Below, in pieces: positions 12,894 through 54,020 of a stretch of 63,201 nt of DNA. The DNA lies in contig CASGEW010000004.1 in the NCBI GenBank assembly GCA_949300615.1, positions 1-63,201 on the forward strand, written 5' to 3'. This DNA is from an uncultured Bacteroidales bacterium. GTDB taxonomy: Bacteria > Bacteroidota > Bacteroidia > Bacteroidales > CHK158-818. The stretch's first letter is position 1. Every line of letters begins with the position of its first letter. The translations under genes were made by a program, and so were the position numbers. The notes under the pieces are model-generated. The model was not told where the DNA came from. It worked only from the letters and a program-made list of their open reading frames with translations, and searched no databases.

Positions 12894-12897
<4 letters not shown>
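12271..12897 (+). CDS. thiE: Thiamine phosphate synthase
   Basis: [28 protein letters not shown]. Confidence 0.95.
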
Positions 12898-15381
<2,484 letters not shown>

Positions 15382-15393
15382 GAACAATCCTCT

Positions 15394-15942: not shown

Positions 15943-17036
15943 AAAAATACCCATGGGATGAGGTAACCGACCAGATTTATTCAAAAACGGCCAACGATGT
16001 AGAAACGGCACTGTGCAAAGAGCACCTCTCCGTGGACGATTTCATGGCCCTGGTCTCTCCCGCTGCGGCGGCATACCTGGAACCGATGGCGGCATTGAGC
16101 CGGAAATATACGCAACAACGATTCGGGAAAACCGTACAAATGTACGTCCCGCTGTACATCACCAACTCTTGTACAAACCATTGCGTGTATTGCGGATTCC
16201 AGCACGACAACCCCATTGCCCGCGTCATACTGAAAGACGAGGAGATTATCAACGAATGTAAAGCTATCCGGAAGATAGGTCCTTTTGAGAATCTCTTGAT
16301 TGTTACGGGCGAAAATCCCCGCGATGCCGGTGTCGATTACATCGAAAACGCCCTCCGGCTTGCCCGGCCCTATTTCGCCAACCTGAGCATCGAGGTAATG
16401 CCCTTGAAAAGCGAAGAGTATTACCGACTGACAAAAGCCGGGCTGAACGGTGTAGTTTGTTTCCAGGAAACCTACAACAAGGCTCATTACAACATCTATC
16501 ACCCGAAAGGGATGAAATCCAAATTTGAATGGCGTGTCAACGGGTTCGACCGCATGGGACAGGCCAATGTCCATAAAATAGGGATGGGCGTGTTGATCGG
16601 GTTGGAAGAGTGGCGTACCGATACCACGATGATGGCCATCCACCTGCGTTACCTGCAAAAACATTACTGGAAAACCCGATACAGTGTCAACTTCCCGCGG
16701 ATGCGCCCCTCAGAAGGACATTTCAAACCGAACGTCATCATGCAGGACAAGGAGTTGGCCCAACTCATTTTTGCCTACCGGATTTTCGACCACGACGTGG
16801 ATATTTCGGTATCCACCCGTGAAAATCCACATTTCAGAGACCATATAGCCACCTTAGGTGCCACATCGATAAGTGCCGGATCGAAGACCGAACCGGGTGG
16901 TTATTATACCTATCCGCAGGCCCTGGAACAATTCTCGGTAAACGACGACCGTACCCCACAAGAGGTAGAAACGTCCGTCAAAAAACTGGGATACGAGGTA
17001 GTATGGAAAGACTGGGACGAAACATTCGACCGCTAA
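15924..17036 (+). CDS. thiH: 2-iminoacetate synthase (radical SAM)
   Basis: CTNHCVYC, FQETYN, SAGSKTEPGGY, WKDWD. Confidence 0.96.
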   Translation: MFSEELEKYPWDEVTDQIYSKTANDVETALCKEHLSVDDFMALVSPAAAAYLEPMAALSRKYTQQRFGKTVQMYVPLYITNSCTNHCVYCGFQHDNPIARVILKDEEIINECKAIRKIGPFENLLIVTGENPRDAGVDYIENALRLARPYFANLSIEVMPLKSEEYYRLTKAGLNGVVCFQETYNKAHYNIYHPKGMKSKFEWRVNGFDRMGQANVHKIGMGVLIGLEEWRTDTTMMAIHLRYLQKHYWKTRYSVNFPRMRPSEGHFKPNVIMQDKELAQLIFAYRIFDHDVDISVSTRENPHFRDHIATLGATSISAGSKTEPGGYYTYPQALEQFSVNDDRTPQEVETSVKKLGYEVVWKDWDETFDR

Positions 17037-17037
17037 C

Positions 17038-17736
17038 ATGGAGCGATACCGCAGACATATCCTGTTGAAAGAGATTGGTACAGAGGGACAACAAAAATTG
17101 GGCCATGCTTCGGTCCTGATTGTCGGCGTCGGGGGACTGGGTTCTCCCGTATCCCTCTATCTGGCGGCTGCCGGCGTAGGACGCATCGGGCTAATGGATG
17201 ACGATACCGTATCGGAAAGTAATCTGCAAAGACAAGTTTTATATACGACAGAAGAGATCGGACTTTCCAAAGTTGTCTGTGCTGAAAAACGGCTGAAAGC
17301 CCTCTCCCCGGAAACAATCATCGAAACCTACCCCTACCGGTTGGAAAATGAAAACGCCGTATCAATCATCTCACAATACGATATAGTGGTGGACGGGTGC
17401 GACAATTACACCACCCGTTACCTGATAAACGACACCTGCCTGCAACTGGGGAAACCATACGTATATGGGACTATCGGCGAGTTTCAAGGTCAGGTTGCCG
17501 TATTCAACTACCTGAACGGATTTTCTTACCGGGACATCTATCCGGACGAAAGTTACCTAACCTCGCTCCCCCGCCCCGAACAGGGGGTGATGGGGGCCGT
17601 TCCGGGTATTGTCGGCTCCATTGAGGCGGCCGAAACCATCAAGATCATCACCGGAGCAGGTAATACACTCAACAACAGACTATTGACCATCGACATTCTG
17701 AACATGGAGGTCAATATCCTGACCTTCCCCCAATGA
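17038..17736 (+). CDS. thiF: ThiF/MoeB adenylyltransferase
   Basis: RYRRH, GVGGLGS, SNLQRQ, DGCDNY. Confidence 0.9.
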
Positions 17737-39094: not shown

Positions 39095-39550
39095 CTATTG
39101 CAACTCGCGGATGATTTCGTGTACCGTATCCACGACCTGAGGAAGTGCCTTTTCAACCGGAGGAGAGAGCTCCATACCGATCTCCTGTACATCCCGTGCC
39201 GAAACGACGACCAAATCAATTTCCGGAATATTCTCTTGCAAGACCATGGCATCTATCATATCTTTCAATCCTACCTCGTGAGCGCTCATCAACCGGGGAT
39301 AATCGGCCGAATATTTGGGTTTTAGCCGCCTTACCGTACCGGGAGGACGGGTATCGAGGGTAGCATCGATCATAATAACATGGTCGTATTGCTGCAAAAT
39401 ACCGATCATAAATATACCTCCCGTCCCTCCATCTAAAACATCTATGCCGGCAGGTATTCCTGTTTGTTGTATTCGATGAACGGCATGGATACCGACTCCT
39501 TCATCTTTAAGTACCCAATTTCCCAAACCCAGGACCAAAATCCGATTCAT
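39095..39550 (-). CDS. hyaD: Hydrogenase maturation protease
   Basis: GLGNWVLKDEGVG, DGGT, SAHEVGL. Confidence 0.92.
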   Translation of the reverse strand: MNRILVLGLGNWVLKDEGVGIHAVHRIQQTGIPAGIDVLDGGTGGIFMIGILQQYDHVIMIDATLDTRPPGTVRRLKPKYSADYPRLMSAHEVGLKDMIDAMVLQENIPEIDLVVVSARDVQEIGMELSPPVEKALPQVVDTVHEIIRELQ

Positions 39551-40326
39551 GCATTTATCTCCTTTTCCCTTTTCTTATGTGCTGTTTCCTCCATTTTTTT
39601 ATCCAAAGACAATTGCTTTTTTCTCTTCTCTTCGGACAAGAATTGTTCTACAATTTTTTCATTTATAAATTTCCAACCGCCTATCATGGAGGAGGCTATC
39701 CCGTTGCGCTCAATATAGTCGTGGTAAAAAACCAGATATACGTGTACGATGATAAACAACACGAAAAACCACATCAAGATATGGTGGATGTTACGAACCG
39801 GAAAGAACCCATTCATGCTGATCAACAAATCCTGAAAATAGGGAGCATACCACGCATCGCTGGATGCACTGAACATGGAAAATCCGGTAACAATCTGAAC
39901 AATGGATACGACCAACAGGCCGAAATAGGTAAAGGCGGCCAGGGAGTTGTGCCCAATGTCGTAAACCGGTTTGGGAGTCAGCAACAACACATCCACCTTT
40001 ATAGTCTCAAAAATGCCGTTAATTTGTTTGCGGGTAATCGGAATAAAATTGTTCCACCGGGCAAAAACATTGCCTGCAAAGGCCCAGTATATACGTACCG
40101 CCAAATTGATTACAAATATAAAAGCGGCGATGAAATGTGCTAATCTCACCCACCCGAACCAATAATTAAACTCCGGTGCCGTACCGTGCATAATGGCAGG
40201 CGGGTCTCCGATAATAAATCCGGTTACAATCAAAACGGTAATTGTAAAGGCATTTACCCAATGGAAAATACGTACGGGCAGTTGCCATACATATACTTCT
40301 CTCAACGACGGTTTTCGACTAATCAT
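39547..40326 (-). CDS. hyaC: Ni/Fe-hydrogenase cytochrome b subunit
   Basis: WQLPVRIFHW, RLAHF, GHNSLA, HHILMW, VHVY heme-ligand histidines. Confidence 0.93.
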   Translation of the reverse strand: MISRKPSLREVYVWQLPVRIFHWVNAFTITVLIVTGFIIGDPPAIMHGTAPEFNYWFGWVRLAHFIAAFIFVINLAVRIYWAFAGNVFARWNNFIPITRKQINGIFETIKVDVLLLTPKPVYDIGHNSLAAFTYFGLLVVSIVQIVTGFSMFSASSDAWYAPYFQDLLISMNGFFPVRNIHHILMWFFVLFIIVHVYLVFYHDYIERNGIASSMIGGWKFINEKIVEQFLSEEKRKKQLSLDKKMEETAHKKREKEINA

Positions 40327-40338
40327 ATCCTGGTGTTT

Positions 40339-42057
40339 TTACATACAATCTAACTGATGGACGAATGAACCTTTTTCGTCATACAAATGAACGGCGCAGG
40401 CCAAACAGGGATCGAACGAATGAATCGTTCTGATAATTTCCAACGGTACAGAGGGGTCGAATACGGGTGTCCCTATCAACGAAGCCTCGAATGCAGAATG
40501 TTGTCCTTTGGTATCGCGGGGAGAACCGTTCCAGGTAGTGGGGACTACCATCTGATACCGGGACACTTTCTTGTCCGATATGTCCACGTAATGGGCCAAA
40601 GAGCCCCGGGGCGCTTCGGTAAGCCCGTATCCTTGGGCTTTCTTGGGCCAGGTAGAGGGTTCCCAATAGGTGTTATTGAACATCCGGTAATCTCCCGACT
40701 TGATGTTACTTAACAACTGGCGATAGAAATCGCCCATCCAATCGGCCACCAACGAAGACTCCATGGCACGTGCCAATGTTCTCCCTACGGTAGAATAAAG
40801 GGCCTCCAACGGCACATTCAATTGGGCCAGGCACTTGTCTGTAAGCTCCTTATACGGTTCGTACCCAGAGGCATACCCGACAATGAAGCGAGCCAGAGGC
40901 CCGGTCTCCATGGGCATTCCTTTATAACGGGGCGTTTTAATCCAGCTATACGGTTTATCTACGTCCAGGTATTCGTATGGAGGCGTAGGCCCGGTATAAT
41001 CCAATACCGTTTCGCCCACCGAAGGGTGAAGCCCTACATCTTTTCCTTCGGCATACTTGTACCACGAGTTATTGACAAACTCCTGCAATCCATCCATATC
41101 GGTAGGGTCAAACGGCTCTACGTGGGACAGGTCCCGATCTACAACAATTCCTCGGGGACTTTTGTAGGTTGGCAGCTCGCCGTAATTTCCCATCGGGAAA
41201 TCTCCATATGAGATGTAATTTCTCAATCCTCCGCCTATTTTAGTCCACTCCGGATAGTACGAGGCGATGGCCAACACGTCGGGCAGATAAACTTGCTGGG
41301 CAAATTGTTGCGTCTCTTCGATAATCTCCGCTACATAGCTCAATCGTTCCAGATTCAACGCATTCGGGTCGTTTATATTCACGGCACAGGCCATCCCGCC
41401 AACCAGGAAATTGGGATGCGGGTTTTTCCCTCCGAATATGGTTTGGATTTTTACAATATCTTTCTGTACTTCAAGCGCCTCCAAATAGTGGGCAACTCCT
41501 AACAGATTTACTGCCGGCGGCAATTTATAGGCTGGATGACCCCAATACCCGTTAGCAAAGATTCCCAGCTGGCTGGTATCCATGAAGTTCTTAATTTTTT
41601 TCTGTATATCGGCAAAATACCCAACAGAACTTTTGGGCCAGGGCGATATGCTCTGGGCAATTGCCGAGGTTTCTTTGGGATCGGCTTTTAGGGCAGAAAC
41701 AACATCGACCCAATCCAACGCCTGCAACTGGTAGAAATGTACCACATGATCCTGTTCCATCAAAGCTGCCTGCATCAGGTTCCGTACCATCTCGGCATTG
41801 GGAGGTACGACAATTCCCAACGCATTTTCGACAGCCCGTACCGAGCACAACGAATGGATAGAGGTGCATACCCCGCATACCCGGCCGACATAGGCCCAAA
41901 CTTCCCGCGGATCGCGGCCTTGTGCTATCAATTCCAATCCGCGTATCATCGTTCCGGAGCTGTACGCATCTTTGATGATTCCGTTTTCTACATCGGCCTC
42001 AATACGTAAATGTCCCTCTATGCGGGTAACCGGATCTACTACGATTCTTTTTGCCAT
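40339..42057 (-). CDS. hyaB: [NiFe]-hydrogenase large subunit (group 1)
   Basis: DPVTRIEGH, RVCGVC, GGKNPH, EAPRG, SFDPCLACAVH plus cleavable tail. Confidence 0.97.
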   Translation of the reverse strand: MAKRIVVDPVTRIEGHLRIEADVENGIIKDAYSSGTMIRGLELIAQGRDPREVWAYVGRVCGVCTSIHSLCSVRAVENALGIVVPPNAEMVRNLMQAALMEQDHVVHFYQLQALDWVDVVSALKADPKETSAIAQSISPWPKSSVGYFADIQKKIKNFMDTSQLGIFANGYWGHPAYKLPPAVNLLGVAHYLEALEVQKDIVKIQTIFGGKNPHPNFLVGGMACAVNINDPNALNLERLSYVAEIIEETQQFAQQVYLPDVLAIASYYPEWTKIGGGLRNYISYGDFPMGNYGELPTYKSPRGIVVDRDLSHVEPFDPTDMDGLQEFVNNSWYKYAEGKDVGLHPSVGETVLDYTGPTPPYEYLDVDKPYSWIKTPRYKGMPMETGPLARFIVGYASGYEPYKELTDKCLAQLNVPLEALYSTVGRTLARAMESSLVADWMGDFYRQLLSNIKSGDYRMFNNTYWEPSTWPKKAQGYGLTEAPRGSLAHYVDISDKKVSRYQMVVPTTWNGSPRDTKGQHSAFEASLIGTPVFDPSVPLEIIRTIHSFDPCLACAVHLYDEKGSFVHQLDCM

Positions 42058-42098
42058 ATTCTGTTCTGTTTTAATACTGCATTAATTCGTTTTTTTAA

Positions 42099-43277
42099 CT
42101 ATTCCCCCTTCTCCTTTTTTTCACGATCGGCCATTTGCCTGCGTTCCTCCTCCATCCGGGCTTTTTGACGTTCATATTCTTCGGTATTGATACTGATGTC
42201 GTCCAACTGGTTCTTTATCAGTTTGCGTTTCTGGATATTGGTAACTACGGCATGCACCAAGACACCTCCCAAGGTAACGGCACCAAGGGCAGCCCCTATT
42301 TGGTCGGATGTAGCCTCTATGCCGATACCGTGAACATCGGGAATATGGCTGTACAACGGAGCATAATCCCAAAAATCGGGTTCTGCACATCCGATACATC
42401 CGTGCCCGGACTGGATGGGATAACTGATGCAATTATTCCATTTGATTACGGCGCAGGAGTTGAACGTATTAGGCCCTTTGCATCCCATATAATAGAGACA
42501 ATATCCTTTCTTGGCATTCTCATCGTCGAACGACTGTACAAAAAGTCCCGCATCATAGGCAGGACGCCTGTAACAAGTGTCGTGTACCCGACGGCCGTAA
42601 AACACTTTCGGACGACCCATGTTATCGAGCTCGGGCAATCGGTCGAACGTCAAGATATAGGTAATGACCCCAGCCATCACATCTGCAATGGGAGGACACC
42701 CCTGTACGTTGATCACCGGTTTACCGGAAAAGATTTTATGCACCGGTTCCGTCTCCGTGGGATTGGGACGTGCCCGTTGAATACATCCCGACGAAGCACA
42801 GTTTCCCCATGCAATAATCGCTTCGGCCCCGGCAGCACTCTCGTCGAACACCTGTTTGGCCGACCGGCCGGCAATCGTACAATAGCCGGGACTGCCCAAC
42901 GGAATAGAGCCTTCTACAATCAGGATATACTTCCCGTAATTTTTCTTCATCGACTCGGCTTTTACCGCCTCGGCCTGTTCTCCGGAAGCGGCCATCAAGG
43001 TATCGGAATAATCCAACGAAATCATTTCCAACAGAATCTGTCCCACCAGCGGATGCGACGCTCTTATAAACGACTCGCTGCAACAGGTACACTCCTGGAA
43101 ATGTTCCCAGATAACCGGTTTACGAGGTTTGGTTTGCAATGCGTCGATAATCTGAGCAACACCGGTACTCTGCAATCCCAACATTCCTCCTACCAAACCA
43201 CAAAATTTCAAAAAATCACGGCGGGAATATCCCTTTTCGATCAACTCCTGATAAAACGTTTTGTTTGTAGTATCCAT
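42099..43277 (-). CDS. hyaA: [NiFe]-hydrogenase small subunit
   Basis: Tat signal SRRDFLK, ECTCCSES, GNCASSGC, GCPP, GCKGP, HGCIGC, C-terminal TM. Confidence 0.97.
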   Translation of the reverse strand: MDTTNKTFYQELIEKGYSRRDFLKFCGLVGGMLGLQSTGVAQIIDALQTKPRKPVIWEHFQECTCCSESFIRASHPLVGQILLEMISLDYSDTLMAASGEQAEAVKAESMKKNYGKYILIVEGSIPLGSPGYCTIAGRSAKQVFDESAAGAEAIIAWGNCASSGCIQRARPNPTETEPVHKIFSGKPVINVQGCPPIADVMAGVITYILTFDRLPELDNMGRPKVFYGRRVHDTCYRRPAYDAGLFVQSFDDENAKKGYCLYYMGCKGPNTFNSCAVIKWNNCISYPIQSGHGCIGCAEPDFWDYAPLYSHIPDVHGIGIEATSDQIGAALGAVTLGGVLVHAVVTNIQKRKLIKNQLDDISINTEEYERQKARMEEERRQMADREKKEKGE

Positions 43278-43295
43278 AGGGCAATTTATTTAATA

Positions 43296-44348
43296 TCAAC
43301 AAATACGAGGCAACTGTTCTCCCGATATGACATCCACGATACGATGTCCTCCATACAGGGTTTTCAACGTTACTATTCCTGCACTTTTTTCGCTAACACG
43401 GCCTATTACGGCCGCATTTCTCCCCAAATCGCCGTTCTGTAAAATCCGGACAGCTTCCCGGGCGTGCGGCTCGGGGACAAAAATCAAAACAATCCCTTCG
43501 TTGGCCACGCACAGCGGATCGAGTCCCAACAAATCGCACGCAGCCCATACCGGCTGGCTTATCGGCAACTGTGTTTCGTCTATCTCTATCGTTACCTGTG
43601 CCTTTCGTGCTATCTCATTCAACGTGGCAGATACTCCTCCCCGGGTAGGATCTCGCAAAAGATGAATATTCGGGACAGCTGACAGCAGATTGGTTATCAG
43701 ACCGTTCAACGGTGCCGTATCGCTCTTTAATTCCGATTCAAACCCCAAGCTGTCGCGCGTGGAAAGAATGGTTATTCCGTGCTCTCCTATCAACCCGCTG
43801 ACAATCACGACATCGCCCGGTACAACGTTCGTCGGGGAGATATGGATACCGTCAGGGACTATCCCCAGGCCGGAAGTATTGATATATATCCCGTCTCCAT
43901 TCCCTTTTTCCACCACCTTGGTATCGCCGGTAATGATCTCCACTCCGGCTTTTCGGGCGGCAGACGACATGGTATTGACAATTCGCTGCAAATCGGCCAT
44001 CGGAAACCCCTCTTCCAAAATGAATCCCGTCGTCAGGTATTTCGGAATAGCTCCGCAACAGGCCAAATCGTTTACCGTACCGTTGATGGCAAGGTCTCCG
44101 ATATTGCCTCCGGGAAAGAAGAGCGGATTGACTACAAACGAATCGGTTGTCATGGCCAAGCGATCGCCTCGTACGGGAATGATCGCTCCATCGTGTTCTT
44201 GTGCCAAATATTTATTCTTAAAAGCAGGGAAAAATATCTTGTCAATCAGCTGTTGTGTCAGCTTTCCCCCGCCTCCATGCGCCAATATTACCTGCTCATA
44301 CCGAGCGATGGGTAACGGACAAGCCTGCTTTAATTGGGTTTCTGTCAT
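43296..44348 (-). CDS. hypE: Hydrogenase maturation protein HypE
   Basis: HGGGG, TTDSF, GDTKVV, RDPTRGG, terminal PRIC. Confidence 0.96.
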   Translation of the reverse strand: MTETQLKQACPLPIARYEQVILAHGGGGKLTQQLIDKIFFPAFKNKYLAQEHDGAIIPVRGDRLAMTTDSFVVNPLFFPGGNIGDLAINGTVNDLACCGAIPKYLTTGFILEEGFPMADLQRIVNTMSSAARKAGVEIITGDTKVVEKGNGDGIYINTSGLGIVPDGIHISPTNVVPGDVVIVSGLIGEHGITILSTRDSLGFESELKSDTAPLNGLITNLLSAVPNIHLLRDPTRGGVSATLNEIARKAQVTIEIDETQLPISQPVWAACDLLGLDPLCVANEGIVLIFVPEPHAREAVRILQNGDLGRNAAVIGRVSEKSAGIVTLKTLYGGHRIVDVISGEQLPRIC

Positions 44349-45438
44349 AACGATTTCTTTTATAACGATAATAGGCGGCACAGGTTCCCTCCGAAGATAC
44401 CATCGGCGCTCCCAACGGATGTTCCGGAGTACAAGCCTGACCAAACAAAGGGCAATCATGCGGGGATATTTTGCCGCTTAGTATCTTTCCGGCTTGACAC
44501 CGATCGGGAACAGATTGTTCCTGCTTTAATTGGAAACGTTTAACCGCATCGTATTGTTTATACGCTTCGTTGATTTTAAAACCGCTTTCTTTCAATAACC
44601 CAAGGCCTCGCCACTCTTGATCAGATCGCTCAAATACCTGCTTTATACAACGTAGGGCCTGTTCATTACCGGAAAGTTCTACCACGCGGGAATAGGCATT
44701 GTCCACACCGGGCTGTTTCGCTTCCAACCTTCTAACACACCATAAAATTCCATACAACAAGTCGGAAGGTTCAAATCCGGTAACAGCAACCGGCGTTTGC
44801 CATTTACGGGAAAAAGACTCATATTCCCGTATCCCGGTAACAGCACAAACATGGCCTGCGGCCAAGAATCCGTCAATGACATTCTCCGGATCGGACAACA
44901 ACGCTTCCATGGCCGGAAGCACCGATACCAATGCCGGCAAAAGGGAAAAGTTCTTTATCCGACGTTGACAAGCAACCTGTAATACCAAAGCATACATCGG
45001 TAAGGCCGTCTCAAAACCGATCGCCAAGAAGACAACCTGTAAATGCGGATTCTCTGCGGCAAGCTGCAAGGCATCGAGCGGGGAGTAGAACATCTTTACG
45101 CCACCTCCCCGCGATTTAGCCGATTGCAAATCGCCCAAGATTCCCGGTACACGCATCATATCGCCAAACGTACACAAACATACGCCGGGTTGCATGGAAA
45201 GCCTTATGGCATTGTCTATAACCGATACCGGAGTAACACAAACGGGACATCCGGGACCATGTATCAGCCGAATCTGCTGCGGTAGCATATCTTCTATGCC
45301 ATATTGGGCCAGCGCGTGCGTTTGTCCACCGCATACCTCCATGATATTCCAACTCCGGGTCGTAATACGGTGTATGGCGTGGCACAACTCTTTTACATCT
45401 TCCGGATTCCGGAAAGAGGAATTAATCATCTGTTGCAT
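44296..45438 (-). CDS. hypD: Hydrogenase maturation protein HypD
   Basis: MEVCGGQTH, GPGCPVC, GFET, PMVSSEGTCAAY. Confidence 0.96.
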   Translation of the reverse strand: MQQMINSSFRNPEDVKELCHAIHRITTRSWNIMEVCGGQTHALAQYGIEDMLPQQIRLIHGPGCPVCVTPVSVIDNAIRLSMQPGVCLCTFGDMMRVPGILGDLQSAKSRGGGVKMFYSPLDALQLAAENPHLQVVFLAIGFETALPMYALVLQVACQRRIKNFSLLPALVSVLPAMEALLSDPENVIDGFLAAGHVCAVTGIREYESFSRKWQTPVAVTGFEPSDLLYGILWCVRRLEAKQPGVDNAYSRVVELSGNEQALRCIKQVFERSDQEWRGLGLLKESGFKINEAYKQYDAVKRFQLKQEQSVPDRCQAGKILSGKISPHDCPLFGQACTPEHPLGAPMVSSEGTCAAYYRYKRNRYDRNPIKAGLSVTHRSV

Positions 45439-45673
45439 ACTGTTTTGAAAAATGAGCAAGAGTTTTAAAATCTTCGAGCGTTTTCAAGGCCTCTTCGGTA
45501 TTAACCTTGCAAAGGGCCACTCCGGCATAGGCCAACAGATAATCGCCGGGAAGGACATCCACATATTCGACGCAAACCGATTTTGAGATTCCGCCAAAAT
45601 CGACCTTTGCCATCTGTAATCCCTCCGCAGGGCGGTCTATTTCCAATACTTTTCCAGGTATTGCCAAACACAT
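45422..45673 (-). CDS. hypC: HypC/HybG/HupF chaperone
   Basis: MCLAIPG start, AKVDFGG. Confidence 0.92.
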   Translation of the reverse strand: MCLAIPGKVLEIDRPAEGLQMAKVDFGGISKSVCVEYVDVLPGDYLLAYAGVALCKVNTEEALKTLEDFKTLAHFSKQYATDD

Positions 45674-45745
45674 ATTTTTTAAGTTTTTATTTAATAAGAA
45701 CAATATTTCGTCTCTTTTGTTTTGTGGTATAAAGAAAGGAGATGC

Positions 45746-48004
45746 ATGAACCATCACTATTTCATACACATCGAGGGACTTGTACAAGGGGTGGGATTCC
45801 GCCCGTTCATTTACCAACTGGCTCGGGAGCACCGTTTGTCGGGATGTGTGGACAACCGAAACGACGGCGTATATATTGAGCTGGATTGTTCGGGGAAAGA
45901 GGTAAAACGTTTTATCCGCGATATATTAAGTAAAAAACCGAAGATAGCGCATATCCGGAACTATGCCGTCTCGCGATTACCGGCGACATCCGGGTTTTCG
46001 GATTTCCAGATTAACGAAAGCAAAGAATCCGGATCGCAAATAACGCGGATCAGCCCGGATATTGCCGTATGCGAAGATTGCCTGCGGGACAGGGGCACCC
46101 AACCGCACCGTCTGTTCTACCCGTTTATAAACTGTACGCACTGCGGCCCTCGGTTCTCAATTATCAAGGATTTACCCTACGATCGGCAGCAAACGACCAT
46201 GAGTGAATTTAAGATGTGCAGCCGCTGTCAGTCAGAATATGAAAACCTGACCGACCGAAGATTTCACGCCCAACCCATCGCCTGCAACGATTGCGGACCC
46301 CGGTACACCGGTACAGACGATTCTGGCATACTTTCGACCGACTATCCCTCTCTTTTACACAAAATCACCGCAACAATCCAATCGGGAGGTATTGTAGCGA
46401 TAAAAGGGTTAGGGGGATACAACCTGCTATGCGACGCACACAATACGAAAAGCATTTTACGGCTGCGGCAAATCAAACAACGGGAGAAGAAACCTTTTGC
46501 CGTCATGTTTCCCGACGAAAACAGAGCCAAGAGATGGCTCGACATAACCGATACCGAATCGGCGCTCTTAAACTCCTGGCGCAAACCTATCGTCTTGTTG
46601 AGGGAACACCAAAAACTAAACCCCGAACTGAACCGGGGATTGACAACGCTGGGTGCGATACTGCCCTATATGCCCATCCATTTCGACATTTTCAAAAACA
46701 GCAACCTGGATGCGGTGGTTTTCAGCAGCGGAAACTTCGGAGACGAGCCGATTATAACAGACAACGAAGAGGCTGAAAAGAAACTCCGGCCAATCGCCGA
46801 CCTATTCGTATCCCACAACCGGGATATTCACAACCGGGTGGATGATTCGGTCGTACAATGTATTCACAACGATTTCCAGATTATCCGTCGTTCAAGGGGA
46901 TATGTTCCCGAGCCGATCATTACCCAAGGACAAACGGAAGGTATTCTGGCCTTCGGGGCAGAAAAAACGGCATCGTTTGCTGTGGGGAAATCGAAAGAGA
47001 TTATCCAGAGCCAATACATCGGGAATCTGTCCAACGTAGAGACGTTTGAATTCTACCAAGAGACAATCCAGCGGTTTTGCCGACTGTTTCGGTTCACCCC
47101 ACGTTATCTGGTCTGCGATCTGCATCCCGATTACCTATCGACCCGATTGGCCCAAGAGATGTCGGCAAAAACAGAAATCGAATTGCTGCAAGTACAGCAC
47201 CATCATGCCCACGCCGTATCCGTTATGATAGAGCATCGTCTTTACGACGATGTCCTGGCTATCTGTTTGGACGGGACTGGATTGGGTACGGATTCCTGTT
47301 CGTGGGGAGGAGAAGTGCTGCGATGCAACCGAAACACATTTTCCCGGTTAAGGCACCTCCCATACGTGGCATTGCCCGGGGGAGACAAAGCCGCCAAACA
47401 GGGATGGCGGATGGCGGTCTCGTACCTGCACCATTATCGGCTACCGATTCCCGAATCATTGAAAAAGGCTATCGGAATAGAGAAAATAGAGGGAATCAAA
47501 CAGATGATAGACAAACAAATCAATACCCCCTGTACATCGAGTTGCGGCCGTTTGTTCGATGCCGTATCGGCACTATTGGGCATCTGCTATCAAAACAGTT
47601 TTCAGGGAGAAGCGGCCATCCTACTGGAACACACGGCATCGGAAAGGGAAACGGGAACCTATCCCCTTCCCCGTCAGGGATTTTCTTTTCAACTTCTGTT
47701 CGAGGGCATCTTAGATGATTTGTCCCAACATATTTCCCGGGAGAATATTGCCGCAAAGTTTCACAATACACTGGCTTCCGTGTTATTAAATAATGTATTA
47801 GAGTTACTGAATGAAACAGGTCTCTCTAAAATCGTCCTTTCGGGAGGGGTATTTCAAAACAAAAAGTTGTTACAGTTGTTAATACAACAGTTCAAGGATA
47901 AAAAAATTCCTTGCTATTATACCAGGCAAATTCCTTGCAACGACGCCGGTATCGCCGTCGGGCAATTAGGTATAGGAGCTGCCGCTTTTTATAAACAACC
48001 ATAA
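45746..48004 (+). CDS. hypF: Carbamoyltransferase HypF
   Basis: GLVQGVGFRPF, Zn fingers, RRFHAQP, QHHHAH, NDAGIAVGQ. Confidence 0.96.
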   Translation: MNHHYFIHIEGLVQGVGFRPFIYQLAREHRLSGCVDNRNDGVYIELDCSGKEVKRFIRDILSKKPKIAHIRNYAVSRLPATSGFSDFQINESKESGSQITRISPDIAVCEDCLRDRGTQPHRLFYPFINCTHCGPRFSIIKDLPYDRQQTTMSEFKMCSRCQSEYENLTDRRFHAQPIACNDCGPRYTGTDDSGILSTDYPSLLHKITATIQSGGIVAIKGLGGYNLLCDAHNTKSILRLRQIKQREKKPFAVMFPDENRAKRWLDITDTESALLNSWRKPIVLLREHQKLNPELNRGLTTLGAILPYMPIHFDIFKNSNLDAVVFSSGNFGDEPIITDNEEAEKKLRPIADLFVSHNRDIHNRVDDSVVQCIHNDFQIIRRSRGYVPEPIITQGQTEGILAFGAEKTASFAVGKSKEIIQSQYIGNLSNVETFEFYQETIQRFCRLFRFTPRYLVCDLHPDYLSTRLAQEMSAKTEIELLQVQHHHAHAVSVMIEHRLYDDVLAICLDGTGLGTDSCSWGGEVLRCNRNTFSRLRHLPYVALPGGDKAAKQGWRMAVSYLHHYRLPIPESLKKAIGIEKIEGIKQMIDKQINTPCTSSCGRLFDAVSALLGICYQNSFQGEAAILLEHTASERETGTYPLPRQGFSFQLLFEGILDDLSQHISRENIAAKFHNTLASVLLNNVLELLNETGLSKIVLSGGVFQNKKLLQLLIQQFKDKKIPCYYTRQIPCNDAGIAVGQLGIGAAAFYKQP

Positions 48005-48006
48005 TT

Positions 48007-48345
48007 ATGCACGAACTATCCATCGCATTAAGTATTGTCAATTTAGCCGTTCAAGAAGCCAAAAACAACGGGAACAACCAACTATCGGAACTGGAAATAG
48101 AGGTCGGCGAACTGGCCGGCGTTGACATCGAAGGGCTCGACTTCTCCCTGGGAATTATCTTGAAAAGCAGCCGGATGAATGTCAGCCACAAAATTGATAC
48201 CATTGCGGCTATCTCCCATTGCAATATCTGCAAAAAAGATTTCAGCGTTATCCGGAAATATACAAGTTGCCCGTTTTGCGGATCGAAAGATACATACCTG
48301 AAAAAGGGCCATGAACTCCGTTTAAAATCAATTGTTGTCGAATAA
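48007..48345 (+). CDS. hypA: Nickel chaperone HypA
   Basis: MHELSIA, CNIC, CPFC. Confidence 0.95.
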   Translation: MHELSIALSIVNLAVQEAKNNGNNQLSELEIEVGELAGVDIEGLDFSLGIILKSSRMNVSHKIDTIAAISHCNICKKDFSVIRKYTSCPFCGSKDTYLKKGHELRLKSIVVE

Positions 48346-48365
48346 AAACCAAAATCGATATATTT

Positions 48366-49124
48366 ATGTGTAGAACTTGCGGATGTAGCGAACATCACCT
48401 TGTACAGGAACCGCATCTGACCCATGAACAGATGCATACTTGGGGAATAGAACATCACCATCACCCTGAAAACAGGTCTGTCATCGAAGTGGAGAAAGAT
48501 ATTCTTTCCCATAACAACCACATGGCCGAACGTATCAGAGGCTATCTGGATGCGCGGAATATATACGCCATCAACCTGGTCAGCTCTCCCGGCTCCGGAA
48601 AAACTTCGTTGTTGGAGGCAACCATAAAAGCCCTCACAGGAAAAATAGAGATGGGTGTCATCGAAGGAGACCAGCATACATCGAACGATGCCAAACGTAT
48701 TATGAACTTGGGCGTTCATACGGTACAAATCAATACGGAAACCGGTTGTCATTTGGAGGCCGGTGAAATATACAATACGATAAAACAGATGAATCTGCCG
48801 ACAGATTCACTCCTTTTCATCGAGAATATCGGTAATCTGGTATGTCCGGCGCTGTTCGATTTAGGAGAAAACGAACGAGCCGTAATGATCAGCGTAACCG
48901 AGGGCGACGACAAACCCCTCAAATACCCCTATATGTTCGAGAGCGCCCAAACCTGCATCATCAACAAAATAGACCTATTGCCTTACCTGCAATGCAATAT
49001 TGAAGAGATAAAACAAAATGCTTTGTCCATCAATCCTCATCTCCTGTTTTTCGAGGTGTCAGCTTTACAGGGCATCGGCATGGAGAATTGGATATCGCAT
49101 CTTTTACAACATACTCAATCGTAA
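48366..49124 (+). CDS. hypB: Nickel GTPase HypB
   Basis: MCRTCGC, His-rich linker, SSPGSGKT, GCHL, ENIGNLVCP, NKID. Confidence 0.96.
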   Translation: MCRTCGCSEHHLVQEPHLTHEQMHTWGIEHHHHPENRSVIEVEKDILSHNNHMAERIRGYLDARNIYAINLVSSPGSGKTSLLEATIKALTGKIEMGVIEGDQHTSNDAKRIMNLGVHTVQINTETGCHLEAGEIYNTIKQMNLPTDSLLFIENIGNLVCPALFDLGENERAVMISVTEGDDKPLKYPYMFESAQTCIINKIDLLPYLQCNIEEIKQNALSINPHLLFFEVSALQGIGMENWISHLLQHTQS

Positions 49125-49771
49125 TGTGCGTCGATTTCTTTAACCAGATATGCCGGCAATGGGATGAAACAAGCAAACCGGATGCCGACAAAATAACCTT
49201 TTTATTGGAAAAACTCTCTTGGAACGTTTCAACCCGGATTCTGGATGTGGGTACGGGTACTGGGGTACTGTTGCCTTTTATCCGACAATTTTCACCTCAA
49301 TCGTATATACAGGCAATAGACATCGCTGCCGGGATGATAGAGATTGCCCAAAAAAAGTACGCAGGATGGGAAAACGTGGATTGGTTCGTTGCGGATATAG
49401 AACAACCTATGGACCGGGGAAAATTCGATCAAATCATCTTGTATTCGGTTTTTCCCCATTTAACCGACAAAACAGGAACTGTTTCATACCTCATCAACCA
49501 CTGCCTGACCGACGAGGGAGAATTATTAATAGCCCATGCCCAAAGCCGGAGGTTTTTAAATCACCTGCACAAACACAAGGACAAACGGGTCTGCAACGAT
49601 TCGTTGATTGCAATAGAAAAACAGTGTACTATTTTTGAAAGAGAGGGTCTGGGAATCATCGATGCCGACGAATCGAACCAATACTATTACATCGTTCTGG
49701 GAAAATCTTATGCCAACTCAACCACCGTAATGCCGGCCCCGCCAAATTGCACATGTTCATCCTGGAAATGA
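49124..49771 (+). CDS. Class I SAM-dependent methyltransferase
   Basis: LDVGTGTG, DIAAGMI, YSVFPH; TAATG overlap with hypB stop. Confidence 0.85.
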   Translation: MCVDFFNQICRQWDETSKPDADKITFLLEKLSWNVSTRILDVGTGTGVLLPFIRQFSPQSYIQAIDIAAGMIEIAQKKYAGWENVDWFVADIEQPMDRGKFDQIILYSVFPHLTDKTGTVSYLINHCLTDEGELLIAHAQSRRFLNHLHKHKDKRVCNDSLIAIEKQCTIFEREGLGIIDADESNQYYYIVLGKSYANSTTVMPAPPNCTCSSWK

Positions 49772-52179
49772 GCGACTCCCGGTACCGTCTTTAAATATTG
49801 TCGAATCAGTTGCCGCAATATTCCCGTACCGGTTCCGTGCAAAATACGCACCCGCGATACCCCTACCAGAATAGCGTCGTCGATAAAATAGGTTACGGCC
49901 TGCAAGGCTTCATCGCCACGCATCCCCCGAACGTCTATTTCCTGCTTGAAATTCAACTTGCGTTCCCTAATATCATCGGCCGTTTGCTCGCTCACAAAGG
50001 TATTTTTGGGTTGTACCTTTTTTACCTGATTCTTACAGACCTTTTCCAACAACTCGGTTTTGACCGTAGATTTGAGCATACCGAAAATCACGATGGAATT
50101 TTTGCCTTGTATCTCTATCACCTCGCCAACCGTATTTTGCCCTTTGATCCGGACATTGTCTCCGGGTTCTATCACTTCGGGTTTCCAGGTCTCCTTTTCT
50201 TTCTTCTTTTGTCTCGCTTTTTTGCGTTGCTCCCGCTCTTGAAGCTGTTTTATTTTACGGGTAATTTTATCATCTGAAATATTTTCCTGTGCTGCGACCG
50301 ACTGTTTAAAGGCTTCAAATTCTTGACGGACGGCCCGGGTTTTCTCCTTTTCTGCCTGTGCCTCCTTGATTTGCCGTATCGTATTTTCTATTTGTGCATT
50401 TGCCTGTTGCAGAACGACCTCGGCTTCCAACTTCGCCCGCTTCATCCACTCTTTCCGTTGCTCGTCCAACTCTTTTAAATCCTTTTCATAGCGGGCCGAC
50501 AGCTCTTCGAGTTTTTTCTCTTTTAACCGGATATTCTGACGTTTGTTTTCCCAATAACGTTTGTCCCGGACAATATCTTGCAGGTATTTGTCCATATCAA
50601 TATAATCGGAGCCTACCTTTTCGGAGGCTTCGGCTATGACATCTTCCGGCAACCCGATTTTACGGGCAATCTCAATGGCAAAAGAGCTGCCCGGATTTCC
50701 TATCGACAAACGGAACAGGGGTTGCATCTGATTCCGATCATACAGCATGGCCCCGTTGACAATACCAACCGTATCTTCGGCAAAATGTTTCAGGTTCTGA
50801 TAATGGGTGGTTATCACCCCGAAAACCTCCCGCTTGTTAAAACGGTCCAACAGAGCTTCGGCTATGGCTCCCCCGATTTGCGGTTCGGTTCCGCTACCGA
50901 ACTCGTCAATCAACAACAGGGAACGTCCGGAACAATTCCGGACAAAATATTTCATGTTGGTCAGATGGGAACTGTATGTACTTAAATCGTTTTCGATAGA
51001 CTGTTCATCGCCTATATCAATAAATATATCTTTGAAAATACCTACCCGGGAATTTTCCCGCAAAGGGATCAACAGTCCGCACTGTACCATGTATTGAAGC
51101 AATCCTACCGTTTTCAGGCAAACGGATTTTCCACCGGCATTGGGCCCCGATATCAGCAAGATACGTTTATCGGCTTGTAACGTAATATCCAACGGTACCA
51201 CCTTCTTCCCCTGCTTGTGCAACGAGAGCGACAAAAGCGGATGTATGGCCTGTACCCAATCTACCTGCGGTTTATTTTCGACAACGGGCAGAATGGCGTT
51301 TATCTGCAACGCGAACAGGGCTTTGGCCCGGATAAAATCTATATCGGCCAAAAACTCATACGAATAGCAAATATCTTCTACATCGGGACGCAACTGATCG
51401 GTAAACTGCGTCAATATGCGCATAATCTCCCGACGTTCTTCATTTTCCAACTCCCTTACCCGGTTATTGGCCTCGACCACTTCGGCCGGTTCAATAAAGA
51501 CTGTCTTACCGCTGGCCGACTCGTCATGTACAATCCCCTTGATTTTACGCTTGTATGCCGGCACTACCGGGATAACCAGTCGCCCGTCGCGCATGGTAGG
51601 GGTAACATCTTTGTTTACAATCCCTTCGCTTTGAGCCAAACGCAAAATATTATTGAGGTTTTTCGATATACTGGCAAAAACGGCAGTTATTTCACGACGG
51701 ATTCGTTGCAACTCGGACGATGCACTGTCTTTTATTTTTCCGAATTTATCGAGAATCTTATCAATGGACGCGATCTGCTGAGGAAAAACAGCAACATTGC
51801 CCGACAATGCCTGCAAACAGGGATAGGGTGTTTTTTCGGGCTCTTCCTGATGAAAAAAGCGGACAATCTGTCGGATGGTATCCAACGACCGTCTCAGATC
51901 GAACAGTTCCGCCTCATCGAGATAGGTTCCTTCTATCCGAATCTTCTTCAAAGCCGGGCGGACATCGAAAAAATAATTTACCGGAAATTCGTCCTCCTCT
52001 TGCAGGATGCGGACAAACTCCTCCGTCTGATGCAGCCAGGTTTGCAACGTATCGTACTTATCGGTAAAAGAGAGGGCTTCTACCCGCTCCGTACCCAAAC
52101 CACTCAGACACTTGGCTGCAATTAGCTCTTTTATTTTATCAAATCCCGTTTTTTGTTCAAAACTTGCAGGGTATATCAC
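49708..52179 (-). CDS. mutS2: Endonuclease MutS2
   Basis: SGPNAGGKS, DIGDEQS, DEFGSGT, C-terminal Smr (DVRG, HGTGTG); GTG start. Confidence 0.96.
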   Translation of the reverse strand: MIYPASFEQKTGFDKIKELIAAKCLSGLGTERVEALSFTDKYDTLQTWLHQTEEFVRILQEEDEFPVNYFFDVRPALKKIRIEGTYLDEAELFDLRRSLDTIRQIVRFFHQEEPEKTPYPCLQALSGNVAVFPQQIASIDKILDKFGKIKDSASSELQRIRREITAVFASISKNLNNILRLAQSEGIVNKDVTPTMRDGRLVIPVVPAYKRKIKGIVHDESASGKTVFIEPAEVVEANNRVRELENEERREIMRILTQFTDQLRPDVEDICYSYEFLADIDFIRAKALFALQINAILPVVENKPQVDWVQAIHPLLSLSLHKQGKKVVPLDITLQADKRILLISGPNAGGKSVCLKTVGLLQYMVQCGLLIPLRENSRVGIFKDIFIDIGDEQSIENDLSTYSSHLTNMKYFVRNCSGRSLLLIDEFGSGTEPQIGGAIAEALLDRFNKREVFGVITTHYQNLKHFAEDTVGIVNGAMLYDRNQMQPLFRLSIGNPGSSFAIEIARKIGLPEDVIAEASEKVGSDYIDMDKYLQDIVRDKRYWENKRQNIRLKEKKLEELSARYEKDLKELDEQRKEWMKRAKLEAEVVLQQANAQIENTIRQIKEAQAEKEKTRAVRQEFEAFKQSVAAQENISDDKITRKIKQLQEREQRKKARQKKKEKETWKPEVIEPGDNVRIKGQNTVGEVIEIQGKNSIVIFGMLKSTVKTELLEKVCKNQVKKVQPKNTFVSEQTADDIRERKLNFKQEIDVRGMRGDEALQAVTYFIDDAILVGVSRVRILHGTGTGILRQLIRQYLKTVPGVAHFQDEHVQFGGAGITVVELA

Positions 52180-52206
52180 GTCTTTTCTCCTTGTTATTTA
52201 CAACGG

Positions 52207-52478
52207 CAAAGATAGTGAAAGGCGAGAGCAGAGACAAATGAAAACAAGTGTTTTCAAATTTGAATCTGCCGAGCCGCAGCCTATCTTCTGTAAAGATAGT
52301 GAAAGGCGAGAGTAGAGACAAATGAAAACAACGTTTTCAAATTCGGCTATACCGAGCCGCATCTTATCTTCGTGTAAACAAAGATAACGAAAGGCGAGAG
52401 TAGAGGCAAATGAAAACAACGCTTTCAAATTTGACTATACCGAGCCGTCTCCTAATATTTTACAAATATAGCGAAAGG
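52207..52478. repeat. Tandem array of three ~84-88 bp palindromic repeats plus a partial fourth
   Basis: Units start at 52207, 52291, 52379 and 52463 (partial); shared core AAAGATA..GAAAGGCGAGAG(C/T)AGAG(A/G)CAAATGAAAACAA..TTTCAAATT..CCGAGCCG. Confidence 0.95.
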
Positions 52479-52595
52479 ATTCCAAACACATACAGATAGC
52501 CTTCTCTTCTTTCTCTTCTCATCGGGAGAGAAATTCAGGCACACCCTGTCCAACAAACCGGACATTTTGTGTACCTTTGCACCAAATACCTCGTT

Positions 52596-54020
52596 ATGAA
52601 CCTACCGGAAGATTTTATCCGCAGAACCCGGGCCCTGCTGGGGGACGAATACGACACATTCCAGAGCGCCCTCGAACAACCTCCCTCGAACAGCCTTCGG
52701 CTGAATCCGGCCAAAACGACCGGAAATTTGCCCGAGCGCGTACCTTGGTGTAACACGGGGTATTACCTGTCCGAACGGCTGACATATACCTTCGACCCCC
52801 TGTTCCATGCCGGTGCCTACTACGTACAAGAGGCCTCGTCCATGTTTTTGGAACAGGTACTCAAACAATACGTCCACCAGCCGGTACGATACCTGGATTT
52901 GTGTGCCGCCCCAGGAGGGAAAAGTACCCACGCCGTATCGGTACTGCCGGCCGGCAGCCTCGTGGTCTCGAACGAAATAACCGACAGCCGCATCCCCGTC
53001 CTGACGGAAAACCTCATCAAATGGGGAACGGGCAATGTGGTAGTAACCCACAACGATGCCTCCGACTTCGCCCCTCTGACAGACTACTTCGACGTCATCC
53101 TGACCGATGTTCCCTGCTCGGGAGAGGGGATGTTTCGTAAAGACCCGAACGCTATCAACGAATGGTCGATAGAGAACGTGGCCCAATGCAGCGACCGCCA
53201 ACGCAGTATCCTGAACCGAATTTGGGGTACATTGCGCCCGGGGGGCATCCTGGTTTACAGCACCTGTACCTACAACACCGACGAGGACGAACAGATCATC
53301 GGTTACCTGCAAACGACATTCGGAGCAGAACTATTACCGGTAGCTTCCCCCCCCGAATGGAACATCTGCAAAGGATTGTCCGGTGAAACAAAAGTAAACC
53401 GTTTCTTTCCCCACCGTACCCGGGGAGAGGGCTTCTTCCTGGCAGCGTTGCGAAAACCCGAAACAGCGGCAATAAGCCGGCAAGAGCTGATCGGCAAACT
53501 GCTCAAAAAAATCGCCCGCCAAAGAGCCAAAGGAGGCAAGACAGAGACCGTCCCCCAAGAGATCAAACAGTGGATCGACAAGAACGACTCGTTCCACTTT
53601 CTCGTCCAAGAAGGGAAAATCATCGCATTGCCACAAGCATACAGCGACGAAATCTCCCTCCTCTTTTCCTTACTGGATGTAGCATACGCCGGCATAGAGG
53701 TAGCCACGCAGAAAGGGAAAGAGTGGATACCCAGCCACGCCTGTGCCATGTCGGTTCACTGCAACCGGCAACTATTCCCCGAAAAAGAGATTTCTCAGGA
53801 ACAGGCCATCGCCTACCTGCGCAGAGAATCCCTGCAACTTCCTCCCGATACCCCCAAAGGGGTCATCCTCCTTACCTACCAGAGCCTCCCCTTGGGCTGG
53901 GTCAAGAATCTGGGGACAAGGGCCAACAACCTCTACCCCCAGGAGTGGCGCATCCGGACAGGATATACTCCCCAACAACTAAAAACCCTCAGCGATCTAT
54001 TCCCGGTATCCGGACATTGA
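52596..54020 (+). CDS. rsmF: rRNA m5C methyltransferase, RsmF/RsmB-NOP family
   Basis: YVQEASSM, DLCAAPGGKS, DVPCSGEGMFRK, YSTCT; promoter TACCTTTG at 52572-52579. Confidence 0.88.
   Translation: MNLPEDFIRRTRALLGDEYDTFQSALEQPPSNSLRLNPAKTTGNLPERVPWCNTGYYLSERLTYTFDPLFHAGAYYVQEASSMFLEQVLKQYVHQPVRYLDLCAAPGGKSTHAVSVLPAGSLVVSNEITDSRIPVLTENLIKWGTGNVVVTHNDASDFAPLTDYFDVILTDVPCSGEGMFRKDPNAINEWSIENVAQCSDRQRSILNRIWGTLRPGGILVYSTCTYNTDEDEQIIGYLQTTFGAELLPVASPPEWNICKGLSGETKVNRFFPHRTRGEGFFLAALRKPETAAISRQELIGKLLKKIARQRAKGGKTETVPQEIKQWIDKNDSFHFLVQEGKIIALPQAYSDEISLLFSLLDVAYAGIEVATQKGKEWIPSHACAMSVHCNRQLFPEKEISQEQAIAYLRRESLQLPPDTPKGVILLTYQSLPLGWVKNLGTRANNLYPQEWRIRTGYTPQQLKTLSDLFPVSGH

Follow-up and report, generated by a model that had tools for sequence, protein, structure and literature searches.

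A 63,201-nt contig from an uncultured Bacteroidales bacterium (CASGEW010000004.1; hereafter the window) carries an array of three head-to-tail repeat units at 52207-52478, upstream of a mutS2-type gene. We found that the unit is dispersed over the same genome, mostly with a promoter-like arm pointing at the start of a gene, that three orthologous promoters are filled with units in one congener and empty in another, and that multi-copy families of the repeat occur elsewhere in the order. The reading we favor, with a probability of roughly 60%, is that the array belongs, as a single locus, to a repeat family of gut Bacteroidales that is dispersed, non-coding, non-autonomous and mobile, is targeted to promoters and recreates the -7 box at which it would insert.

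The mutS2 array and its dispersed copies

Direct reading and tandem-repeat searches confirmed the original prediction of three units and a 16-nt stub with promoter-like arms facing mutS2. The units, all on the minus strand, measure 84, 88 and 84 nt. Tandem Repeats Finder reported 52207-52447 with a period of 88, 2.8 copies, 86% matches and a score of 339, by far the top of its 30 rows for the window, and a separate repeat search returned three 75-nt copies at spacings of 84 and 88 nt plus a terminal stub at 52455-52478. Unit 1 (52207-52290; nhmmer score 70.7) is a near-perfect long hairpin with GAAAAC (52240-52245), a loop (52246-52249) and GTTTTC (52250-52255) at its apex. Its box, TATCTTTG at 52207-52214, is the gene-proximal -7 box of the array, and its -33 TTTG (52235-52238) lies 20 nt upstream of that box within the 3' arm of the hairpin. 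Unit 2 (52291-52378) carries TATCTTTA at its box (52291-52298) with TTTG-N20 ahead of it (-33 at 52319-52322; whole arm 52291-52322), and unit 3 (52379-52462) again has TATCTTTG at 52379-52386, with its -33 at 52407-52410. Units 2 and 3 closely resemble each other (88% or 91% in the repeat search and BLAST comparisons) and are joined by a long-linker junction with a period of 88, TATCTTTG-TTTACAC-GAAGATA (52364-52386). The stub, CAAATATAGCGAAAGG (52463-52478, minus strand), consists of a distal box, TATATTTG (52463-52470), and 8 nt resembling a unit end (CCTTTCGC on the minus strand). Such a distal box ends 17 of the 23 arrays of this genome that have a complete distal unit.

The gene that the array faces (49708-52179, minus strand) encodes MutS domain V and a MutS2/Smr-associated SH3 domain (Pfam MutS_V, 3.4e-31; MSSS, 3.3e-06) and has the N-terminus (V/M)IYPASFEQKTGFD. 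The gap between the first box (52207) and the GTG start at 52179 is 27 nt, as had been noted.

In Bacteroidetes promoters the -33 TTTG and the -7 box are separated by 19-21 nt. We found 6 exact matches to TTTG-N19-21-TAnnTTTG in the window, compared with 1.2 +/- 1.0 in shuffled sequence, and none of 100 shuffles reached 6. Units 1 and 3 account for two of these matches (52207-52238 and 52379-52410, minus strand). The consensus itself, TAnnTTTG at -7 and TTTG near -33, is that given in the passages of a published account that we drew on (PMC7366714).

The genome (G000) is a 2.41-Mb draft in 130 contigs, of which the window is contig 4. BLAST and three rounds of nhmmer located 54 units in this draft. 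They occupy 34 places, spread over 30 contigs, and each place holds 1-3 units; the count is a floor, with several contigs ending inside arrays. Single units make up 22 of the places and pairs or triples the others. Array periods were 83 (13 cases), 82 (2), 84 (1) and 88 (3), and units aligned pairwise by BLAST at 80-95% identity across 76-88 nt. The predicted dispersal was thus found, and it leaves next to no room for the mutS2 promoter having simply been duplicated once in place, or for a chance likeness to the consensus. The close similarity of units 2 and 3 would fit a duplication, but we regard both ideas as refuted by the copies dispersed in this genome, by the multi-copy families in at least 8 genomes besides it, and, for chance, by a motif count above that of every shuffle.

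Contigs that end in arrays include C14 (2-51), C27 (160-388), C108 (5070-5128) and C112 (4462-4680), and where the congener G001 has a single array, its flanks correspond to the termini of two separate G000 contigs (L051, L056, L059). The repeat evidently fragments short-read assemblies. The long-linker junction with its period of 88 recurs in G000 at C10:70207-70300 and C21:21021-21114, and is also present in three other genomes of two genera (L112, L116, L118, L115). Two-unit blocks seem to have been copied jointly, or the long-linker variant seems to be old.

The copies sit at promoter positions. Scored on a crude map of open reading frames (ORFs), the promoter arm pointed at the adjacent gene start in 27 of the 32 scorable places (binomial p = 1e-4); the other five are all weak, truncated or mis-mapped, two of them at contig ends. 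In a second test we counted ORFs of at least 60 aa that start 5-55 nt past the last -7 box, which we found for 20 of 26 boxed arrays versus 26% of 6000 random intergenic points (p = 9e-8). The remaining six boxed arrays had an ORF start 79-152 nt away or lay at a contig edge, and eight degenerate copies had no recognizable box. The same test on 345 other intergenic TAT[ACT]TTTG boxes of G000 gave 49%, indicating that boxes of this type are markers of gene starts in G000. The promoter bias expected of an element that inserts at -7 boxes was therefore present.

According to Pfam, the downstream genes are unrelated. Among their products are MutS2, RsmD, PriA, TruA, LepA, HflX, EngB and two ABC-F proteins, as well as a peptidase M20, GH127, GH28, a radical-SAM protein, a lipocalin-like protein, CotH, LemA and a DksA-type zinc finger. 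Factors acting on the ribosome or on nucleic acids were common among the 27 carrier genes scanned, an observation made without a statistical test. An inverted pair of promoter arms was present at one G000 locus only. At C93:2952-3119, between lepA and a response-regulator gene, an ordinary unit is followed by a symmetric unit (3035-3119) in which both arms read a full TTTG-N20-TAnnTTTG (3066-3035, minus strand; 3088-3119, plus strand), one facing lepA and the other the response-regulator gene; the locus is arranged alike in G001.

The boxes of an array are not equally conserved. In loci pooled from G000, G001, seven other genomes and 119 loci of a scan of species collections, the gene-proximal box ended in the consensus G in 191 of 208 cases and internal boxes in 80 of 145; the other 65 internal boxes ended in T, A or C, or no box was present. 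In G000, a promoter of the sigma-ABfr type was matched exactly by 23 of 30 proximal units and by 12 of 19 internal ones. The retention of G in proximal boxes and its loss in internal ones fits selection on the last box and drift elsewhere, and most likely the last unit would serve as the promoter of the gene, with the inner units mostly passengers. That each unit carries an outward promoter, as originally proposed, holds as sequence within the window but not across the family. The frequent absence of the G from internal boxes also argues against every unit as its own transcription unit, and with it against the suggestion that each makes an RNA of about 85 nt.

Filled and empty promoters among congeners

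G001 and G002 are congeners of G000. In G002, which is 90% complete, BLAST found no unit anywhere in the genome. Comparison of the three yielded three orthologous filled/empty pairs with base-precise edges, and every empty site contained exactly one -7 box, TAT(A/T)TTTG, located 20-28 nt before the ATG, where the filled site reads box-unit(s)-box. The existence of such empty sites was in favor of the original reading. The rsmD locus has 0 units in G002, 1 in G000 and 2 in G001: G002 reads ..AACTATATTGGTTATATTTG-TAC..ATG, and G000 has the same flanks with an 83-nt unit between two TATATTTG boxes. At hflX the numbers are 0 in G002 and 2 in both G000 and G001, with CATTATATTT-GCATCG in the empty site and two units between TCTATTT-A.. 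and ..TATATTT-GCATCG in the filled ones. At the third locus (C66:4250) it is G000 that is empty (..CCGTATTTTTGTTTGG..), and G001 has one unit between TATATTTG and TATTTTTG. This pair favors the proximal box as the resident one, in that it equals the box of the empty site and the distal box equals the family consensus.

Unit number also differs between G000 and G001 at other loci: 3 versus 2 at mutS2, 1 versus 2 at priA, 3 versus 1 at C56 and 1 versus 2 at C23:1445. Some comparisons gave no clean empty site. At priA, G002 has an unrelated stretch of similar length, C21 and C13:34523 are rearranged, and the copy at C61 is present in G001. Opposite the degenerate copy at C9:13346, a stretch of G002 resembles the promoter arm only (TATTTACCTGCG..TTTTTCGTATATTTG; L030 3235-3420 compared with L018 1741-2000), and it could be either a relic of a unit or an ordinary promoter likeness.

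Upstream of mutS2, G002 has a lone box, CAAAGATA, at the same distance from the start; the region ahead of mutS2 in G002 is CGCAAAGATAACGAA and is not backed by a unit. On its distal side the mutS2 array has a different flank in each of the three congeners, so that the far edge cannot be read there. The divergent neighbor on the distal side of the array, an rsmF-type gene, adjoins it only in G000; in G001 and G002 the two genes are on separate contigs with other neighbors (L011, L012; window 52463-52600). These differing neighbors indicate that a rearrangement breakpoint coincides with the array or with the promoter.

None of the four repeat-free promoters that we read in G002 and G000 has a TTTG 19-21 nt upstream of its box. 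A unit placed at such a promoter, which lacks a native -33, would add a consensus one.

The unit palindrome and its distribution across Bacteroidales

From aligned units, the repeat is about 83 nt long and reads, in the direction of the gene, box TAT(A/C)TTTG, AGAAKATAGG, a long imperfect hairpin, TTTCAC and the next box. The hairpin runs GGCTCGGCATAG..CAAAT..GAAAAC-N4-GTTTTC..ATTTG..CTCTGCTCTCGCC, with the consensus -33 TTTG in its 3' arm exactly 20 nt ahead of the next box. Its 5' arm repeats the promoter arm in inverted and diverged form, and the mirrored box in it, TATATTCT, has no TTTG. Periods of 82, 83 and 88 cannot be divided by 3 and keep no reading frame, and a coding reading of the repeat was rejected on this ground.

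The nested palindrome described for unit 1 is real: the unit folds at -30.1 kcal/mol on the plus strand (z = -5.9) and at -29.7 on the minus strand (z = -5.6). The folds of units 2 and 3, which were described as largely keeping it, are far weaker (z of -0.9 to -2.5). Using 89 distinct units from seven genomes and a structure fixed from the fold of unit 1, we found that the palindrome pairs in 87.7% of cells, compared with 41-55% when the partners are slid by 1-3 columns. Cells changed on both sides numbered 63 (24.6 +/- 3.8 in shuffles, none of 500 reaching 63), and pairs with changes on both sides numbered 11 (6.7 +/- 1.3; 1 of 500), counts that relatedness among the repeat copies inflates. 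The main covarying pairs are 18-100 (GC 44, UA 26), 31-87 (CG 58, UA 13) and 36-81 (CG 70, UA 11), and the paired changes are spread over three helices. In 87.6% of cells the outer arms, AAKATAG and CTATMTT, are paired, and one of their pairs alternates between GC (44) and UA (26). An alternative local hairpin, formed by the upstream box and the 5' arm, fits about equally well.

A conserved palindrome raises the question of whether the units act as RNA, that is, as small structured RNAs or 5' leaders transcribed from an upstream box, the hairpin being a stabilizer, an attenuator or a trans-acting small RNA. The strong hairpin of unit 1 (z about -6) and the paired changes in three helices speak for this, as does the finding that two positions are mostly G-U on the gene strand, 34-83 (70 of 89) and 15-103 (59 of 89), pairs that would be A-C mismatches on the other strand. 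Units were also present within longer contigs of a metatranscriptome run. However, an RNA library can hold DNA, and the contigs show no transcript ends. The four runs that we compared with the region were all assembled contigs, two labelled RNA and two DNA; many contigs begin their similarity at 52205-52207, the edge of the repeat, which has no bearing on expression. G-T and A-C mismatches in G000 and G001 together were about equal (61 versus 96, or 47 versus 54 without the two outermost non-paired columns), and the de novo RNAalifold consensus of 55 units was weak (-7.0 and -0.9). In Rfam, a search of 51000-53500 at E values up to 10 gave 4 chance-level rows and no family near threshold, the best being GEBRO with 17 bits against a gathering score of 284.7. 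With 65 of 145 internal boxes lacking the consensus G, many units would be without a promoter of their own.

A terminator role was rejected: where the long unit hairpin ends, a scan of the consensus placed nothing resembling a terminator, which is a further point against an RNA role, and the sole such site within the array is a 5-pair stem in unit 2 (52344-52359, plus strand). Finally, one genus (G029; L003, L006, L009) has a shorter form, its period being about 75, in which the apical GAAAAC/GTTTTC hairpin is missing from all four aligned units; this form keeps GGCTCGGCATAG..CAAATAAATTTG..CTCTGCTCTCGCCTTTCACTATCTTTG and still forms arrays, with up to four or more units. We consider a role as RNA quite improbable and read the palindrome as a feature of the DNA, perhaps as arms recognized by a protein or as a folded single strand.

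The repeat is widespread but patchy. BLAST with two units found it in 3 of 41 relatives and, across the order, in 12 of 401 genomes (7 of 236 genera). With a covariance model, 8 of 151 genomes were positive (7 of 148 genera), six with multiple copies and two with single weak hits, so that about 4% of the sampled genera of the order have multi-copy families. Two complete genomes contained 60 and 41 promoter arms (2 and 1 in controls), counted with up to 3 mismatches. A scan of species collections with an exact 25-nt pattern returned at least 119 stretches in titled records, which included several Barnesiella, Paraprevotella clara (YIT 11840), P. xylaniphila (YIT 11841), Phocaeicola plebeius, Alistipes and Tidjanibacter; further titles among the matches listed were Rikenellaceae, Muribaculaceae, Prevotella and Bacteroides, and one 2-kb contig was binned as Ruminococcus. 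Sequencing runs that contain most of the mutS2 region were labelled gut or chicken gut metagenomes. Among 31 loci from seven other genomes, 30 arrays end in a box, 29 of the 30 reading TAnnTTTG, and in many of them an ORF starts 4-60 nt past the box.

Copies were rare in viral contigs, and we see no case for a phage or plasmid origin. The exact pattern was present in 1 IMG/VR contig; copies were also found in 12 unannotated contigs of viromes and in 1 plasmid record. The virome contigs are titled 'Bacteriophage sp.' (MT836672.1, MT835991.1 and ten others), come from human fecal viromes and may be bacterial DNA. The plasmid record (OY726013.1, 16415-16515) is 46 kb long and filed as a Phocaeicola massiliensis plasmid.

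We also weighed whether the unit could be a vertically inherited cis-regulatory module, in which a conserved regulator would use the palindrome as its operator, or the palindrome would insulate the promoter that it precedes. It would be kept in one regulon and lost in some lineages by deletion between boxes. Some of the data lean this way. Of about 30 loci in other genera, 3 precede orthologs of G000 carriers (EngB, M20 and RsmD), with about 0.5 expected by chance; LepA, HflX, EngB, two ABC-F proteins, RsmD, TruA, PriA and MutS2 give the 27 carriers scanned their richness in ribosome and nucleic-acid factors; units are 80-86% identical between genera whose orthologous proteins are 64-68% identical; and the paired changes preserve the palindrome. 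But GH127, GH28, the lipocalin-like protein, CotH and LemA are carriers as well, and the congener G002 has no unit and a plain single-box promoter at three of these orthologs. Unit number at one promoter ranges from 0 to 3 among close species, and the repeat was found in 8 of 151 genomes sampled across the order. Units clustered by genus (14 label changes versus 36 when shuffled; some subfamilies cross genera) and not by locus, the rsmD units being an example. An operator would, moreover, need neither 76 conserved bases nor tandem copies. Taken together, we judge an inherited module to be unlikely.

Proposed mechanism and relation to known repeats

For the mobile, promoter-targeted repeat that we favor, we propose the following series of steps. 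Units sit exactly at the -7 box of a resident promoter, which leaves the gene with such a box as far from the start codon as before. The element would supply a consensus -33 and the spacer, and the resulting composite promoter, with the last box, would drive the gene and might affect the expression of mutS2. The target motif would be recreated at each end, allowing head-to-tail growth and shrinkage by slippage, unequal exchange or re-insertion. Members of one array are usually each other's closest relatives, and growth within arrays would therefore be mostly local duplication. Transposition to new promoters would depend on a trans-acting enzyme specific for TAT(N)TTTG, and upstream boxes, where intact, might add longer transcripts with a hairpin leader.

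Several observations weigh against this scheme. As the original prediction stated, the window has no transposase: none of its 54 ORFs scanned with Pfam has a transposase or integrase domain. The Y1/RAYT family (Pfam PF01797, Y1_Tnp; a positive control matched in 6 of 14 named genomes) was absent from all nine genomes searched (G000, G001, G002, G029, G358, G317, G106, G081 and G255), two of which are single contigs. No mobilizing enzyme was found, Y1_Tnp being the one transposase family that was searched for. No autonomous or parent element was found among the six candidate unpaired left arms checked in two complete genomes, which proved to be four ordinary diverged units and two chance matches inside genes. 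The boxes that bound filled sites are 7-10 nt long and differ by 1 nt in two of the three pairs (C66 and hflX); a fixed target-site duplication is thus not established, and the element may itself carry one box. The difference between filled and empty sites could equally be a deletion between two boxes. Some subfamilies are shared between genera, as in the case of the long-linker junction, and the shared carrier orthologs fit inheritance or a shared regulatory role as well as they fit a target preference.

The lack of a linked enzyme could mean that none is needed. The -7 box could act as microhomology for template switching or ectopic conversion, with the hairpin stalling replication and favoring the switch, and slippage could change the arrays. 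Besides the absence of Y1_Tnp from the nine genomes and of an autonomous copy from the places checked, the only flank shared by the loci is the box, which is often imperfect; this box is the commonest conserved intergenic 8-mer, and 345 further intergenic TAT[ACT]TTTG boxes in G000 are possible landing sites. Local copying would also suit arrays whose units are usually closest relatives, and two-unit blocks with the same odd junction at three loci. Yet two switches on 7-10 nt of homology would be rare, and carriers hold 40-60 units where a non-carrier from the same genus is without any. A distribution that is patchy across several families, at 80-86% identity, resembles that of an invading element, and the enzyme search covered the Y1_Tnp family only. 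We hold transposase-free spread to be about as improbable as an inherited module.

A more specific version of the mobile repeat, which we put forward tentatively, is a promoter-splitting, self-complementing element. It would recognize the -7 box of a sigma-ABfr promoter, perhaps as the melted strand of the open complex, and insert at the edge of the box, giving a spare -7 box to the orphaned upstream half and a consensus -33 and spacer to the resident box. If this is true, insertion would be harmless or even up-regulating and each copy would recreate its own target, which would account both for the head-to-tail arrays and for how the repeat passed horizontally, with no transposase linked to it, between several families of gut Bacteroidales. 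Mobile DNA in bacteria would then have a targeting logic of a new sort, and the unit would be a natural promoter cassette tunable by copy number.

Small repeats of comparable kind are known in other bacteria. Correia elements (CREE/NEMIS) of Neisseria are 100-155 bp long, have 26-bp terminal repeats and duplicate TA; they are small, non-coding, palindrome-ended repeats with many intergenic copies and differences in presence between strains. The mutS2-array repeat is like them in being small, non-coding and palindromic, in its many intergenic copies, in its apparent supply of a promoter and in its presence/absence differences. It is unlike them, as they are described, in having a unit of about 83 nt between two sigma-ABfr -7 boxes, head-to-tail arrays and a Bacteroidetes -33/-7 promoter. 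REP and REPIN sequences are palindromes of 20-40 nt, typically in inverted doublets. Our repeat shares with these its short intergenic palindromes, tens of copies, lineage-specific consensus and lack of coding capacity, but has a 76-nt core and an 83-nt period, is AT-rich, is arranged head to tail, and lies at gene starts instead of gene ends. With two defining features missing, a RAYT gene (in the nine genomes searched) and inverted doublets of 20-40 nt, we rejected assignment to a REP/RAYT system, and the label 'REP-like' does not hold.

Correia elements harbor functional promoters and are listed with ERIC and REPIN as promoter-carrying small repeats (PMC3575422). Matus-Garcia, Nijveen and van Passel (2012) defined putative mobile promoters as sequences with at least 80% identity over at least 50 nt upstream of unrelated genes, sometimes shared across families and with no known way of moving; their survey covered the -150 to -50 window in 1,362 complete genomes of 2011 and gave no anatomy or target (PMC3575422). 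Units of our repeat fall within this operational class (80-95% identity over 76-88 nt, unrelated Pfam families downstream), and the present analysis in addition defines where the element begins and ends, which motif it targets and what its empty sites look like.

The repeat has four of six generic features of MITEs (miniature transposable elements with inverted repeats). Among them are that it is short, non-coding and dispersed, that presence and absence differ between relatives, and that it has terminal inverted repeats, the whole unit being an imperfect palindrome. A 2024 catalogue in NAR reports, in the passages that we drew on, 81,380 different cellular MITEs from 46,051 Bacteroidota genomes, some common to Bacteroides and Phocaeicola, and may contain this family; those passages describe neither a promoter target nor tandem arrays (PMC11602168). 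In the same order, BrickBuilt of Porphyromonas gingivalis is, from the portion of its description used here, a MITE containing tandem repeats (PMC4596501). There the minisatellite is inside a larger MITE, unlike our repeat, in which the whole unit is the tandem period and lies at promoters. The literature that we searched, which excluded the sequence supplements of the catalogue (PMC11602168), contained no description of such a Bacteroidales repeat, and with nothing in Rfam either, the family matched none described in these sources. To judge from sequence comparison, the view of it as a promoter-targeted, promoter-regenerating MITE-like repeat, widespread in gut Bacteroidales and of the known promoter-carrying kind, appears largely right, with mobility, a mobilizing enzyme and promoter activity as its predicted parts.

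If so, tens of housekeeping promoters in many gut Bacteroidales (by record title, Barnesiella, Paraprevotella, Phocaeicola, Alistipes-type Rikenellaceae and Muribaculaceae) would be chimeras of host and repeat, and the change in unit number between close species would be a ready source of expression variation. Those who engineer Bacteroidales would also gain from the units a ready-made natural collection of short consensus promoters, and the units pose the mechanistic question of what recognizes TAT(N)TTTG and moves an 83-nt hairpin.

The divergent neighbor of the mutS2 array encodes an RsmF/RsmB-type 16S rRNA methyltransferase (52596-54020, plus strand; Methyltr_RsmB-F, 1.5e-40; RsmF_N, 6e-25; PUA, 1e-17) and has a -7 box of its own, TACCTTTG (52572-52579, plus strand), outside the repeat and 16 nt ahead of its ATG at 52596. 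Elsewhere in the window, 10598-17736 holds a thiamine biosynthesis cluster (a ThiD-type kinase, two TMP-TENI genes, ThiG, ThiC, a ThiH-like radical-SAM gene and ThiF), and 39095-49124 encodes a NiFe hydrogenase large subunit, cytochrome b, a HycI protease and the maturation genes hypD, hypF, hypA and hypB. The second-ranking tandem repeat of the window is at 43560-43616, in the gap before an ORF at 43779, with a 27-nt period, 2.0 copies, 80% matches and a score of 70.

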